From: a virus
Lineage: Duplodnaviria > Caudoviricetes
Reading direction: 5' to 3' (one strand)
Virus record (IMG/VR): IMGVR_UViG_3300020336_000004
Location: 1-64,000 of that record
DNA length: 64,000 nt
Shown one piece after another: positions 7,287-51,631 of the stretch. The notes below the pieces were generated by a model, which saw only the letters and a program-made list of their open reading frames with translations, was not told the origin of the DNA and made no database searches. Every line of letters starts with the position of its first letter. Positions within the stretch are counted from its first letter, which is position 1. A program made the position numbers and the translations under genes.

Positions 7287-7985
7287 TTATTTATCTATAT
7301 TATTCTTATGAACGATTTTATCTATCCTTCGAATATTATGACCGCACTGCAAATGGCATAGTGTTAAGATTTTTGAAGTTTTAGCAAAAAAGTAAGCCCC
7401 ATTTATGTACCCTTGATTTCTAATAGAGTTGGCAGTCTTCTGGCCTATTTTAATTTTATCAGGATTATCTAGTGCCCAGGTTATAAAGTTAATATCAGGA
7501 GTAGTTTTTAGTGTTACTTTGTATTTGTAATCTACAGGAGTTGAACTAATTATAGTATTTGAATTATTTTTTAAAAACGATATGTATTCATTGTCTGGTT
7601 CCCATAATTCAGACCTACATTTTTCAGGTACTTTTTTAATACAATCGTGTAAAAACTTTTGATCATTTGTAAAAATTGATAGTTCTCGATTTTCTATGCG
7701 TAAAGTATAGTCTACTTTTTTAGTAAACATACCTAATAACTTTCTAGCACATAAAAAATCTAACTCAGGAACTGGGTCAAGTTGAAATCGCCATGAATTA
7801 TCCGAACGTTGCATTGGTAACTTAGCATTGTATTGCAAAGATAGAGTATCTAATTGCTTTTTTGCATAGTTAAAATTTTTGTTGCGAAATATGTGTCCAA
7901 TTTCGTTTCGAAAAACAAACTTGAACATGTACTTGTCCCAAAATAATTTATTCGTTGTGTACTTCAACAATCTTTTTCTCCTCAC
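7287..7985 (-). CDS. Hypothetical phage protein
   Basis: 232-aa ORF. Confidence 0.6.
   Translation of the reverse strand: MRRKRLLKYTTNKLFWDKYMFKFVFRNEIGHIFRNKNFNYAKKQLDTLSLQYNAKLPMQRSDNSWRFQLDPVPELDFLCARKLLGMFTKKVDYTLRIENRELSIFTNDQKFLHDCIKKVPEKCRSELWEPDNEYISFLKNNSNTIISSTPVDYKYKVTLKTTPDINFITWALDNPDKIKIGQKTANSIRNQGYINGAYFFAKTSKILTLCHLQCGHNIRRIDKIVHKNNIDK
7288..7295 (-). promoter_or_regulatory. T4-like late promoter (GATAAATA), 5 nt from ATG
   Basis: Variant of gp55-type TATAAATA, recurrent in intergenic positions. Confidence 0.6.
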
Positions 7986-10191
7986 ATTGGAGTGCTAATA
8001 GACTGTTATTTAAATCAATTTTGACAGTTCCGCCATTTTTAAGTTTACCAAATAGTAACTCTTTTGACAATGGACGTTTAATATCTTGGTCAATAACTCG
8101 TTGTAAAGGTCTTGCACCCATTTTTTTATTAAATCCTTTGTCTACAAGATAGTCTAATGCTTCATCGGATACAGTAATTTCAACGTTTTTATCTTTGACC
8201 ATATTCTTAAGTTCAAGTAAGAACTTGCCAACAATTTTCATCATAACAGGTTTGCCTAACCTATTGAATGTAATGACGCCATCTAATCTATTTCTAAATT
8301 CTGGTGCAAAGAAACGTTTAAATTCATCATCACCATACTCGTCTTCTTCGCCGTCGTTAAATCCTATAGCATTTTTATCAGCTTCAACTGCACCAAGGTT
8401 AGTTGTAAGTATTAGTACACAATTACGTGCATCGGCTTCTTTACCGTTAGACCCAGTAACTTTACCATTGTCCATAACTTGTAATAAGATTTGTGAAATG
8501 TCTGGATGTGACTTTTCAATTTCATCTAATAGTAATACACAGTTAGGGTTTTCTTGAAGTTTTGTAATTAGTAGACCATTGTTATCTTCAAAACCAACAT
8601 AACCTGGAGGAGACCCAATTAGTTTACTAACACTATGTTTTTCTTGATATTCACTCATATCAAAACGTACTAATTCAACACCTAAGTTATGTGCAAGTTG
8701 TTTTGCAGTTTCAGTTTTACCGCAACCAGTTGGACCCATAAACACAAATGAACCAATAGGCTTATCATCAGGCTTAAGACCTGCTTGTGCGACTAGTATT
8801 TTATCTGTAATACTATCTATTGCATTGTCTTGACCGTAAACAACTTTTTTCATATTAGTATCTAAATTTTTAAGTTGATTAGATTCAGTTTCCATAATTT
8901 GTTCTGAAGGCATTTTTACAATTTTAGAAAGTTCAAACTGTACTTCTTTAGTGCCTATAACTTTTTTCTTTGCTTTTTTTAGATTGAACCTTGAACAAGC
9001 AAGGTCTAATAAGTCAATTGCTTTATCAGGCAATTTTTTATCTGTTTGATACTTAATACTTGTTTTAATTGCCGCGTCAATAGCATCTTCGGTAATTTCA
9101 ACACTATGAAATTCTTCGTAGTATTTTTTAATTCCTAATAGAATATCTTTAGTAACTGATGCACTTGGTTCGTCAATTGACACTCTTTGGAATCTACGCA
9201 TCAATGCACGATCTTTTTCAAAGTATTGACGGTATTCATCCCAAGTAGTTGATGCAACAACTTTTAAGTTACCTTTTGTAAGTGCAGGTTTTAGCATATT
9301 TGCTAAGTCATTGGAACTACCTTGCCCGCCTGCTCCTGCACCATTCATCATGTGTGCTTCATCTATGAACATAATAGTTTTGCCTTTTTTCTTAAGGCCT
9401 GCTAGTACAAGTTTAAAGCGTTCTTCGAAGTCTCCGCGATATTTACTACCTGCTAACATACTACCAATGTCTAACATGTATACATTATAATCTTCTAAAA
9501 ATTTAGGTACCATTTTATTTACAATGTTATATGCTAGTCCTTCTGCGATTGCAGTTTTACCAACTCCTGGTTCACCAACAAGTAATACATTGTTTTTCTG
9601 TCTACGTCCTAATGCTAATGCAATGCTTTCTAGTTCTTCTGAACGGCCAATAACTGGATCAATTTTCTTATTATCTACTTCAGTGTTTAAATTTGTTGTA
9701 AACGCATTTAATGCTCTTGCCGCTGCACCACTCATTTCTTCGTCTTCAAATGTTGCTTCAACCTCTTGTTGCAAATAGTCCAAAAATTTCTCTTTATCAA
9801 TGCCTGCTTTTTCTAAATAGTAATAAGCATGGCTTTTCTTCTCTGAAAGCATACTTAAGAATACATCACTTAGGCCAATTTCTGCTCTACCTGCAAACAA
9901 AACTTGTGTGAATGATCTATTAAGTACTCTTTCTACTGCGGCTGTTTTCTTAGGCTTATATTTGTCAAGCTCAATAACAATTTCGGAACAGTTCTCTTTT
10001 AAATATTTTTCAATGTTTACTTTAATGTATTGAATATCAACGCCAAAGCCTGATAATAAGTTGCTAAATTTTTCTTCACAAAGCATAGCAAAAAGTAAAT
10101 GTTCCAAGGTGACATATTCATGCTTTAATATGCCTGCGTCTTTTACTGCTTTATCAAATACTAACTGTAAATCTTTATTGGGTTCTACCAT
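7948..10191 (-). CDS. clpA: ClpA ATP-dependent Clp protease ATPase subunit
   Basis: Clp N-domain (HEYVTLEHLL), two Walker A motifs (GEPGVGKT, GPTGCGKT), LPDKAIDLLD, IGF loop, GARPL. Confidence 0.92.
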   Translation of the reverse strand: MVEPNKDLQLVFDKAVKDAGILKHEYVTLEHLLFAMLCEEKFSNLLSGFGVDIQYIKVNIEKYLKENCSEIVIELDKYKPKKTAAVERVLNRSFTQVLFAGRAEIGLSDVFLSMLSEKKSHAYYYLEKAGIDKEKFLDYLQQEVEATFEDEEMSGAAARALNAFTTNLNTEVDNKKIDPVIGRSEELESIALALGRRQKNNVLLVGEPGVGKTAIAEGLAYNIVNKMVPKFLEDYNVYMLDIGSMLAGSKYRGDFEERFKLVLAGLKKKGKTIMFIDEAHMMNGAGAGGQGSSNDLANMLKPALTKGNLKVVASTTWDEYRQYFEKDRALMRRFQRVSIDEPSASVTKDILLGIKKYYEEFHSVEITEDAIDAAIKTSIKYQTDKKLPDKAIDLLDLACSRFNLKKAKKKVIGTKEVQFELSKIVKMPSEQIMETESNQLKNLDTNMKKVVYGQDNAIDSITDKILVAQAGLKPDDKPIGSFVFMGPTGCGKTETAKQLAHNLGVELVRFDMSEYQEKHSVSKLIGSPPGYVGFEDNNGLLITKLQENPNCVLLLDEIEKSHPDISQILLQVMDNGKVTGSNGKEADARNCVLILTTNLGAVEADKNAIGFNDGEEDEYGDDEFKRFFAPEFRNRLDGVITFNRLGKPVMMKIVGKFLLELKNMVKDKNVEITVSDEALDYLVDKGFNKKMGARPLQRVIDQDIKRPLSKELLFGKLKNGGTVKIDLNNSLLALQCEEKKIVEVHNE

Positions 10192-13544: not shown

Positions 13545-14762
13545 CTAATGCATGTACTCGGACCAATTGAACCTTTCCATGTCAACACCGTCTTGGTACA
13601 TGTCCCATAGTGGTGATAATTGTCTTAATTTTTCAACTACATCTAGTAGTATATCTGCCGTTTGGTTAATATCTTCAATTGTAGTCTGCCTACCAAAACT
13701 AAATCGTATACTACTATGTGCTAATTCGTCTGCTCTGCCTAATGCACGTAATACATAACTTGGTTCAAGTGTTGCACTTGTACATGCACTACCGCTACTA
13801 ACAGCAACATTTTCTAAAGCCATAATTAAACTTTCGCCTTCAATAAAATTAAAACTAATATTTAAAATGTTTTTAACTTTATGGAGAAGACTTCCATTAA
13901 AATATACTTCTTCAACTTGGCTAACCCTTTCTAATAAACGATCATGTAATATTGCTACATGAGCTTTATCTTCTTCAAATCTTTCTTTTGCAATTCTGTA
14001 TGCTTCGCCCATTCCTACAATTTGATGTGTAGGAAGTGTTCCACTTCTATTTCCTCTTTCGTGGCCACCACCATGCATTTGTGCTCTAATTCTTGCACGT
14101 GGTTTACGTCTAATATATAATGCACCAACACCTTTAGGACCATATGTTTTATGTGCTGACAAACTCATTAAATGTACAGGAAGTTCTGCTAAATTAATTT
14201 CTATTTTACCTGTGGCTTGTGCTGCATCAACGTGAAACGTAATTTTTTTATCAAAGCAAAGTTTACCAATGTTTTCAATATCATTAATAGTACCAAGTTC
14301 GTTATTGATAAACATAATACTTACAAGTATAGTATCTTCTCTAATTGCGTCAGAAATCATATCTGCTGTTATAATTCCATCATCATTTGGTTCAAGATAT
14401 GTTACTTCGAATCCATCACGTTCAAGTTCTCTGCAAGGATCAAGTACCGCTTTGTGTTCAATTTTACTTGTAATAATATGTTTGCCGTTTGATTGGTAAA
14501 ATTCTGCTGTACCTTTAATAGCAAGGTTATCTGCTTCAGTAGCACCACTTGTGAATACAATTTCTCTTGGATCAGCACCAATAAGGTTTGATACTTGTTT
14601 TCTTGCTGTATCAATTGCTTGATCAGCTTCCCAGCCAAAACTATGACTTCTACTTGCAGGATTACCAAATTCACCCTCAAAGGTGAGATATTTGGCCATT
14701 AATCCTGCAACTTCGGGATCGCACGGTGTAGTTGATGCGTAGTCTAAATATACTCTTTTCAT
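13545..14762 (-). CDS. iscS: Cysteine desulfurase IscS
   Basis: [26 protein letters not shown] (PLP Lys), SSGSACTS (catalytic Cys), SPLWDM tail. Confidence 0.95.
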
Positions 14763-48501: not shown

Positions 48502-48595
48502 TGGTAGTCCCGGGGGGATTCGAACCCCCATCGCTCTCTAATCTGGAGACTGTGCCGAGTATAAGCCGGGTGTTTTACCGTTAAACTACGGGACT
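48502..48595 (-). tRNA. tRNA-Ile(UAU) with long extra arm
   Basis: Acceptor AGTCCCG/CGGGACT-A-CCA, anticodon loop CT-TAT-AC (48561-48563), T arm GGGGG-TTCGAAT-CCCCC, ~24-nt variable region. Confidence 0.85.
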
Positions 48596-48598
48596 ATT

Positions 48599-48672
48599 TG
48601 GCATAGGTGGAGGGAATCGAACCCCCATTAACTGGTTTGGAATCAGTTGTGTTACCATTACACTACACCCAT
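48599..48672 (-). tRNA. tRNA-Trp(CCA)
   Basis: ATGGGTG/CACCTAT-G-CCA, anticodon loop TT-CCA-AA, TTCGATT T loop. Confidence 0.92.
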
Positions 48673-48708
48673 AAAAAAAGCCCCTAACATTATTAGTGCT
48701 AGGGGCTT
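48673..48708 (-). terminator. Intrinsic terminator (attenuator 3:4) abutting the tRNA-Trp 5' end
   Basis: AAGCCCCTAGCA-CTAATAA-TGTTAGGGGC followed by T7. Confidence 0.9.
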
Positions 48709-48738: not shown

Positions 48739-48798
48739 TCAAGACATACCCCTTTTTAGTGGCCAACATATTATTCGTATTGTATTAGTCTTGATCAT
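48739..48798 (-). CDS. Attenuator leader peptide MIKTNTIRIICWPLKRGMS
   Basis: SD AAGGA, ATG at 48798, codons ATA CGA ATA ATA TGT TGG, TGA at 48739; its 3' end is complementary to the terminator 5' arm. Confidence 0.8.
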   Translation of the reverse strand: MIKTNTIRIICWPLKRGMS

Positions 48799-48824: not shown

Positions 48825-48853
48825 ACTATACACTCGTTATTTAACAAAGTCAA
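48825..48853 (-). promoter_or_regulatory. Sigma70 promoter of the attenuated tRNA operon
   Basis: TTGACT-N17-TATAGT. Confidence 0.8.
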
Positions 48854-50834: not shown

Positions 50835-51047
50835 TCATAGTTCTTCTACAATACCTAATACTTCTGCAATAATTAGTAATGCACCTGCAACCATAACCCA
50901 AACACCCCATTCTTCAAGGTACCAGCCGGCTACAAGAAATGCTCCACCTGCGGCAATACGTACTGCACTTTTAACAAGGCTAACGTAAAAATGAAATAGA
51001 CTAGGATCTTTTGCGGCTGGAATAATTATTTTTTCTGGAATTGGCAT
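50835..51047 (-). CDS. Small membrane protein
   Basis: HFYVSLVKSAVRI...AEVLGIVEEL. Confidence 0.6.
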   Translation of the reverse strand: MPIPEKIIIPAAKDPSLFHFYVSLVKSAVRIAAGGAFLVAGWYLEEWGVWVMVAGALLIIAEVLGIVEEL

Positions 51048-51631
51048 TATCTACTCTCCATAATTTTATCTGCAAGGCCATAATTAACTGCTTCGCTGGC
51101 ACTCATAAAGTTATCTCTATCCATATCTGCTTCAAGTGTAGCATAACTTTGTCCTGTATGCTTTTCGTACAGTTTAGTTAATGTTTCTTTCCAATACTGT
51201 AGTTCTTTATATTGAATTTCAACGTCACTTGCTTGACCTTGTGTTCCACCAAGGGGTTGATGAATCATATGCCTACTGTGAGGAAGGACAACTCTTTTAC
51301 CTTTTGCACCTGCACTGGCTAAGAAACTGCCCATACTAGCGGCTTGTCCCATTACAATAGTACTAACTGGACTTTTAATAAATTGCATAGTATCGTAGAT
51401 ACTCATACCAGCAGTAACAGATCCGCCCGGACTATTAATATAAAAGTTGATAGTCTTCTCCGGGTTTTGGCTTTCTAAGAAAAGCATTTGCGATACAATT
51501 AAACTAGCAGATGCACTATTCACATCTGTGTCTAACATTATAATACGATCTTTTAATAATCTGCTATAAATGTCGTAGCTTCTTTCACCACGGCTTTCTT
51601 TTTCAATTACTACAGGTACTAAGTTAGGCAT
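51047..51631 (-). CDS. clpP: ClpP protease proteolytic subunit
   Basis: [25 protein letters not shown] (Ser), MIHQP (His), DRD. Confidence 0.97.

Follow-up and report, generated by a model that had tools for sequence, protein, structure and literature searches.

A phage tRNA(UAU) for AUA codons carries a conserved second hairpin with the standard isoleucine anticodon in its loop

In nearly all bacteria, AUA is unique among sense codons in that it can be read only once a tRNA has been modified, and isoleucyl-tRNA synthetase (IleRS) normally rejects U34. A tRNA gene found in a 64,000-nt stretch of a Caudoviricetes genome (IMG/VR record IMGVR_UViG_3300020336_000004, positions 1 to 64,000; the whole stretch is hereafter the window) specifies the anticodon UAU together with a long extra arm, raising the questions of what this tRNA decodes, what charges it and what its arm is for. 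An initial annotation had described the UAU anticodon, a C27·C43 mismatch, a variable region of about 24 nt and, within it, the hairpin UCUC-CAGAUUA-GAGA. All of these were confirmed by direct reading, which also placed the gene on the minus strand (Table 1), and ARAGORN, suggested there as a check, called tRNA-Ile(tat) over the same interval. Comparison of 8 kb of the window with GenBank phages by megablast returned no match, so no close isolate is known. Within IMG/VR, the tRNA recurs without any change in four further contigs.

The gene scored 58.3 bits against the Rfam tRNA model (gathering score 29, E = 3 × 10−11), above the curated threshold, and comes last in a minus-strand group of five tRNA genes (Arg, Ser, Thr, Trp and Ile(UAU)). 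Its cloverleaf has the 7/5 layout (a 7-bp acceptor stem with A1-U72 and C4-G69, and a 5-bp T stem), a 4-bp D stem (GUUU/AAAC) with a 7-nt loop (AACGGUA), an anticodon stem in which the C·C mismatch is followed by C-G, C-G, G-C and G·U, and an anticodon loop with U33, UAU and A37. The variable region (A-CAG-UCUC-CAGAUUA-GAGA-GCGAU, 24 nt) is followed by the T arm GGGGG-UUCGAAU-CCCCC, and the discriminator is A73. A73, C4-G69 and U12-A23, which belong to the identity set of bacterial IleRS (PMC9976931), are all present, and the 24-nt variable region with its 4-bp stem is a long variable arm of the kind that marks class II tRNAs.

Table 1. Features of the tRNA(UAU) locus and of other genes discussed, with positions in the window.
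Feature	Position	Strand	Evidence or remark
tRNA(UAU) gene, 94 nt	48502–48595	minus	ARAGORN tRNA-Ile(tat); Rfam RF00005
Encoded CCA of tRNA(UAU)	48502–48504	minus	sequence
Extra hairpin UCUC-CAGAUUA-GAGA in variable region	48535–48549	minus	sequence and covariation
GAU in extra-hairpin loop	48541–48543	minus	sequence
Anticodon arm, C27·C43 mismatch plus 4 bp, loop CUUAUAC	48554–48570	minus	sequence
Anticodon UAU	48561–48563	minus	sequence
tRNA-Trp(CCA), first gene of two-tRNA operon	48599–48672	minus	ARAGORN; Rfam 63.5 bits
Intrinsic terminator, 12-bp stem, U7, abutting tRNA-Trp upstream	48673–48708	minus	invariant in 11 related loci
19-codon leader ORF, MIKTNTIRIICWPLKRGMS then stop	48739–48798	minus	three ATA, one TGT, one TGG
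Sigma-70-like promoter TTGACT-17-TATAGT for leader and tRNA operon	48825–48853	minus	10/12 matches
ClpA-like protein gene	7948–10191		
IscS-like protein gene	13545–14762		
ClpP gene	51047–51631		ORF translation only

To place the gene in a wider context, we assembled a set of at least 190 distinct UAU tRNAs of extended length, drawn from Lactobacillus and IMG/VR phages and from the tRNA arrays of bacteria. A distant BLAST search recovered homologues of 91–93 nt in the Lactobacillus Herelleviridae phages LpeD, ENFP1, Semele and Lpa804, in whose extra stems compensatory changes were already visible. When IMG/VR was scanned with the anticodon arm alone, 104 of the 106 tRNA(UAU) genes found were 91–96 nt long and carried an extra arm. 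A second scan of the IMG/VR viral contigs, in which only the extra loop and the T loop were fixed and the anticodon was left free, yielded 76 ARAGORN tRNAs, 73 of them with UAU, and with acceptor, D and anticodon stems that differed greatly among them. Covariance model R1, which was used to recover members with a minimal D arm that ARAGORN misses, added about ten loop-carrying tRNAs, all UAU, the remaining hits being non-tRNA chance matches; by both methods together, about 83 of 88 tRNA-like sequences with the extra loop had the anticodon UAU. Among prokaryotes, scanned at one genome per species with at least 120 loci listed, the matches listed included at least 68 ARAGORN tRNA(UAU) genes, mostly from Acidobacteriota and Rhodobacteraceae and usually in arrays of 7–38 tRNA genes. 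Across the 2,305 unique tRNAs of all loci, the CAGAUUA arm was present in 174 of 192 UAU tRNAs, 2 of 400 Leu, Ser or Tyr tRNAs and 0 of 1,713 tRNAs with other anticodons, bearing out the conservation that the initial annotation had proposed to look for by alignment. Given this family of distinct homologues and the covariation of the extra stem described below, the arrangement in the window is far beyond chance, and judged by sequence the gene is a real tRNA for AUA with a conserved extra GAU hairpin.

Structure statistics were computed from 79 representatives with pairwise identities below 86%. With the extra stem counted in, the cloverleaf was paired at 93.2%, compared with 59.9% in shuffled alignments, and none of 500 shuffles reached the observed value. 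In the extra stem itself, 97.8% of cells were paired, with double-sided changes at all four pairs. The Levitt pair 15-48 was present in 64 of the 66 rows with both bases (A-U in 58, G-C in 6), A73 in 78 of 79 representatives, C4-G69 in 40 of 70 and U12-A23 in 53 of 79; U33-U34-A35-U36 of the main loop was invariant. From the cloverleaf pairing, the Levitt pair, A73 and the invariant U33-U-A-U, we therefore infer that the family folds into a normal L shape in which the UAU hairpin is the anticodon arm. At the base of that arm, 134 of the 190 family members had a mismatch or a weak pair at 27-43, and we also considered whether the 4-bp anticodon stem might be a 'superwobble' device (PMC13092985, in which tRNA-Ile is not treated).

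In the extra hairpin itself, a basal purine–purine mismatch leads into 4 bp and a 7-nt loop, and the hairpin was followed by five unpaired bases on its 3′ side in 58 of 64 sequences, so that hairpin and unpaired bases together resemble an anticodon arm with a class I variable loop behind it. Its G, A and U were conserved in 79, 79 and 78 of the 79 representatives, respectively; among the 64 sequences found without selection on the loop, 63 had GAU (the sole exception being Lactobacillus phage Semele, with GAA) and at least 44 read CAGAUUA. In one member, L034, the extra arm (CCGUC-UUGAUAA-GGCGG) is a perfect, textbook Ile(GAU) anticodon arm. Besides GAA in Semele, the loop has drifted to AGAUG in ENFP1, and such drift would predict an Arg-type IleRS in the Lactobacillus hosts. 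In addition, the pair third from the extra loop, equivalent to 29-41, was C-G in 179 of 190 members (94%), and the last loop base, equivalent to 38, was A in 76 of 79. The main arm had C-G at 29-41 in 98 of 190 members, a count inflated by the first search pattern, and ordinary Ile(GAU) tRNAs of the same loci had it in 59 of 76. Recent duplication of the anticodon arm was rejected as the origin of the extra arm, the two stems sharing no sequence.

Bacterial IleRS recognizes A73, C4-G69, U12-A23, C29-G41, G or lysidine at 34, A35, U36, t6A37 and A38 (PMC9976931). The main arm of the window tRNA offers U34, A35, U36, A37, C38 and C29-G41, and its extra hairpin offers equivalents of G34, A35, U36, A38 and the C-G pair, although the second loop has A at '33' and U at '37' (and so no A37). 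Because GAU, A38 and the C29-G41 equivalent are found in the extra hairpin, the anticodon-arm part of the isoleucine identity set appears to sit in the second hairpin, not in the first.

We next asked what AUA means in this phage, in which ATA occurs at 22.7 per 1,000 codons and makes up a third of isoleucine codons. The columns occupied by each codon were examined in alignments of the phage ClpA and IscS with 230 cellular homologues, to which they are 70–77% identical (the two genes were probably acquired from the host lineage, judging by this identity; separately, the nearest labelled IscS, 69% identical, comes from a gammaproteobacterial MAG). At the 13 ATA codons, the homologue majority was isoleucine eight times, valine twice, another residue three times and leucine never, and three ATA sites corresponded to an invariant isoleucine in 114–116 homologues. 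Mean residue fractions in ATA columns (I 0.60, V 0.17, L 0.04) were similar to those in ATT/ATC columns (I 0.68, V 0.23, L 0.06) and unlike those in columns of leucine codons (L 0.81). As judged from these columns, AUA is written as isoleucine in the window phage, and recoding to Leu, Ser or Tyr was ruled out by the same test; the option, raised initially, that LeuRS charges the tRNA and so recodes AUA fails at the same point, there being no ATA column with a leucine majority. For charging of the tRNA with isoleucine the evidence is indirect and lies in these same ATA columns, where homologues mostly have Ile or Val. The tRNA thus has the long arm of a class II tRNA with neither a Leu, Ser or Tyr anticodon nor a matching codon meaning.

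The genes around the tRNA bear on its use. A Shine–Dalgarno sequence precedes the short ORF MIKTNTIRIICWPLKRGMS, which lies between the promoter and the terminator upstream of the tRNA-Trp and tRNA(UAU) genes, so that a short ORF with regulatory codons is followed by an intrinsic terminator, as in known attenuators. Ten distinct homologous leaders were found (L014, L024, L025, L043, L051, L054, L062, L078, L087 and L186), always ahead of operons that contain tRNA(UAU) and, in all leader operons except L025 (where ARAGORN places tRNA-Pro first), with tRNA-Trp as the first gene. The core isoleucine codons of these ten leaders are all ATA, within a recurring motif I-I-x-W-x-P, and the leader codons (ATA two to five times, TGG, TGY, CCN and sometimes TAY, GGT or TCA) partly match the downstream tRNAs. 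For example, the L186 leader has GGT where the others have TGY and its operon has tRNA-Gly, not tRNA-Cys, and TAT and TAC in the L014 leader go with a tRNA-Tyr gene in the operon behind it. Within the ORF, the beginning is paired with the end, one compensatory change being seen, and a conserved AGGGG(U/C) near the ORF end can pair with AGCCCCU of the terminator (seen by eye in 11 loci, without covariation support); there is also a weak Rfam Thr_leader match. In its promoter, Shine–Dalgarno sequence, short ORF with clustered regulatory codons and terminator the arrangement is the same as in the trp, his, thr and pheST attenuators, with this AGGGG pairing as a candidate for their alternative helix, but its targets would be tRNA genes, whose products decode the regulatory codons (AUA, UGG, UGY, CCN and others). 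The leader thus looks like a candidate ribosome-mediated attenuator of the tRNA operon, and its ATA codons support the use of tRNA(UAU) in translation. No paper on leader-peptide attenuation of a tRNA operon was found in the literature searched. As a separate observation, three class II-like tRNAs of about 100 nt (L087:737-838, L025:4676-4776 and L054:143-242), with loop CUGUUUA, an arm of about 27 nt and ARAGORN labels of Asp-atc or Stop-tta, lie just upstream of the leader operon in L087 and L054 and about 0.9 kb downstream of tRNA(UAU) in L025.

Other routes to reading AUA are known, and the family differs from each. The tRNA-Ile2(UAU) of Mycoplasma mobile (Taniguchi et al. 2013, PMC3575796) and the tilS-suppressor tRNA-Ile(UAU) of B. 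subtilis likewise have a gene-encoded UAU, decode AUA as isoleucine without lysidine and carry A73, but they are class I tRNAs with a short variable loop that are weakly charged or depend on an IleRS adapted by Arg at the W905 site. With E. coli IleRS, charging of UAU is poor and is restored by the single substitution W905R (PMC3575796). The GAU-arm family has a 24-nt variable region, and its cellular carriers have neither the lack of tilS nor the basic residue at the IleRS W905 site that go with the M. mobile type: TilS scored above the cut-off in five of the five carriers tested, and the Trp-type IleRS motif CERCW was found in the four carrier genomes whose IleRS was readable, a weak test in that the Trp type is the common state. 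Loss of TilS in cellular carriers is thus rejected, and its presence in all five indicates that tRNA(UAU) is not required there and is an accessory in cells. A TilS-independent decoder of AUA, as the initial annotation had inferred, is supported to the extent that UAU is encoded in the gene and AUA is isoleucine, but not in the sense that the tRNA replaces TilS. No IleRS or TilS gene was found in the 96-kb phage record, which CheckV rates as 27% complete.

The nematode nev-tRNA-Ile(UAU) (Hamashima et al. 2012, PMC3333845) also combines a long variable arm with UAU, but nev-tRNAs come from eukaryotes, have bodies like that of tRNA-Leu and accept leucine in vitro (PMC3333845), whereas the window tRNA has a class I-like body, a conserved arm-loop sequence and AUA columns that match isoleucine. 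The Acidobacteria allo-tRNA(UAU) (Mukai et al. 2017, PMC5389517) shares the long V arm, with UAU a predominant anticodon, but in allo-tRNAs the acceptor/T branch is 8/4 or 9/3 and position 73 is mostly G or U, in contrast to the 7/5 layout and A73 of the window tRNA; a text search of that paper found no discussion of a GAU loop. Six of our Acidobacteriota UAU tRNAs (L237, L247, L251, L288, L311 and L353) have a long D stem, a 4-nt loop and a GCGC-CAGAUUA-GCGC arm, and are taken, from the D arm alone, to be allo-tRNA-like. Class II tRNAs (Leu, Ser, Tyr and Sec) have a base-paired extra arm in the same place, between positions 44 and 48, but differ in their anticodons, in a D arm with a 3-bp stem and large loop, and in an arm with unconserved loops of 3–5 nt and few flanking unpaired bases, whereas the GAU hairpin has a 7-nt loop, four to five unpaired bases on each side and a purine–purine mismatch at its base. 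Thus tRNA-Ile(UAU), nev-tRNAs and allo-tRNA(UAU) are already known, and we found no description of a 7/5 tRNA(UAU) with a conserved, GAU-bearing second arm in the literature searched (phages, tRNA arrays and the allo-tRNA paper).

The same loci hold other tRNAs of unusual length. These phage clusters and the acidobacterial arrays contain many short tRNA-Leu genes of 74–77 nt that lack a long variable arm (for example, L001:2572-2647, L001:2912-2988, L003:2547-2621, L240:1372-1447 and L296:302-375), with 124 short and 139 long tRNA-Leu across all loci, the reverse of the Ile(UAU) case. In Semele, a 91-nt gene annotated as tRNA-Tyr (L003:1386-1476; ARAGORN anticodon AUA) adjoins the tRNA(UAU) and, with its shortened loop (CCGG-AAUAC-CCGG) and altered extra arm, looks like a decayed paralog of the UAU family. 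Phage tRNAs of 84–90 nt with extra arms were found in L015, L217, L227, L124 (Asn), L114 (Cys), L157 and L186 (both Trp) and L244 (Lys); extra arms on phage tRNAs outside class II are therefore not rare, and their loops are unrelated (for example, GAAA) and not anticodon-like.

We tentatively propose, with a confidence that stops just short of an even chance, that the gene encodes a lysidine-independent decoder of AUA as isoleucine, that its second arm secures charging by IleRS and that leader attenuation gates its supply. The tRNA would be translationally active, with its UAU anticodon reading AUA as isoleucine, and would be usable in any host without lysidine synthesis by TilS; the problem to be solved would be that ordinary bacterial IleRS, with Trp at the site that reads the wobble base, charges U34 tRNAs poorly. 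That the extra arm helps recognition by IleRS, one of the roles suggested for it initially, fits the identity-element evidence (GAU with A38, and C-G in 94% of 190). In a more explicit form, which we consider quite possible while leaning against it as a whole, the tRNA would be two-headed, with the ribosome using the UAU head, IleRS using the GAU-mimic head and the leader setting supply by sensing AUA and UGG. In either form, the second hairpin, built like an anticodon arm with one mismatch, 4 bp and a 7-nt loop, would show IleRS the nucleotides G34-A35-U36, A38 and a C29-G41-like pair, and IleRS may read this head when the second hairpin takes the place of the UAU arm in the stack beneath the D stem, whereas A at '33' and U at '37' would keep it from decoding. 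Co-transcribed with tRNA-Trp, the tRNA would probably be gated by attenuation at the AUA and UGG codons of the leader. Such a design would need neither TilS nor an adapted IleRS, and a decoder portable in this way would explain the spread of the family through phages and mobile tRNA arrays. Several points speak against an IleRS mimic. Synthetases of class I, to which IleRS belongs, as a rule leave the variable region exposed to solvent, so reading of the arm by IleRS would need a rearrangement. Among the strong determinants for bacterial-type IleRS is t6A37 (PMC9976931), but position '37' of the second loop is U; Semele has GAA, and TilS is kept in all five carriers.

The alternative that survives best, although we think it unlikely, is that the tRNA is charged via its main loop (A35, U36, t6A37 and A73) and that the arm is read instead by a U34 enzyme, or through a ribosomal or factor contact that curbs misreading of AUG. 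U34 in the AUA/AUG box risks reading of AUG, and M. mobile needs a special property of its ribosome to escape that risk (PMC3575796). The weak 27-43 pair kept in most of the family hints at tuned dynamics of the anticodon arm, and on a class I synthetase the extra arm would point into solvent. However, this alternative leaves unexplained why G-A-U, A38 and C29-G41 equivalents are the IleRS set, and with family hosts ranging from Lactobacillus to marine Proteobacteria and Acidobacteriota the other reader must be universal; we know of no universal partner that reads such an arm. More improbable still is a protective arm, which would divert host anticodon nucleases as a decoy, shield the tRNA from them or act as a stabilizing helix like those of other phage tRNAs. 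Phage tRNAs do evade tRNA-targeting defences, in keeping with such a role, and Asn, Cys, Trp, Lys and Thr phage tRNAs in these loci have 84–90-nt forms with extra arms. Those arms, however, have unrelated loops, CAGAUUA being absent from all 1,713 tRNAs of other anticodons, and a loop conserved in hosts so unlike one another points to a universal reader more than to a variety of nucleases; no tRNA-Ile-specific nuclease was identified in this analysis.

We give very little credence to an RNA without a role in translation, that is, a regulatory or mobile-element tRNA-like RNA as proposed for allo-tRNA(UAU), even though six amber suppressors derived from allo-tRNA(UAU) were inactive, with non-translational roles suggested (Mukai et al., PMC5389517), and many cellular copies lie in accessory tRNA arrays of genomes that, where tested, also carry TilS. 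Against it stand the canonical 7/5 cloverleaf, with U33, A37, T loop, Levitt pair and encoded CCA, the operons that tRNA(UAU) shares with ordinary tRNAs, the leaders whose core isoleucine codons are all ATA, and a phage that writes a third of its isoleucine codons as ATA. Least credible by far is redirection of charging to LeuRS, SerRS or TyrRS by the long arm, with AUA recoded, for which A73 with a long arm, the nev-tRNA precedent (PMC3333845) and the assumption that UAU allo-tRNAs are Ser-like (PMC5389517) could be cited, but which is at odds with the isoleucine-rich, leucine-poor ATA columns and their three invariant isoleucine sites, a class I D arm (4-bp stem, 7-nt loop), A at position 73 in place of the G73 of tRNA-Ser, and A at position 35 in place of the U35 that TyrRS requires.

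If the proposal of a second arm that secures charging by IleRS is correct, the family would be a widespread natural tRNA that solves both the need for lysidine and the rejection of U34 through a built-in copy of the standard isoleucine anticodon arm, and that arm would be a new kind of identity element, one that lies in the variable arm and mimics an anticodon. For genetic-code engineers, it would offer a ready-made decoder of AUA, and the leader, if its candidate role holds, would be the first known case of an attenuator that senses the codons read by the tRNAs whose genes it controls. The results also suggest that the acidobacterial allo-tRNA(UAU), thought to be non-translational, may be isoleucine tRNAs and not Ser-like, provided that tRNAs of the L237 type are allo-like. 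More broadly, the two-headed design, if true, would show how mobile elements make tRNAs independent of their hosts.
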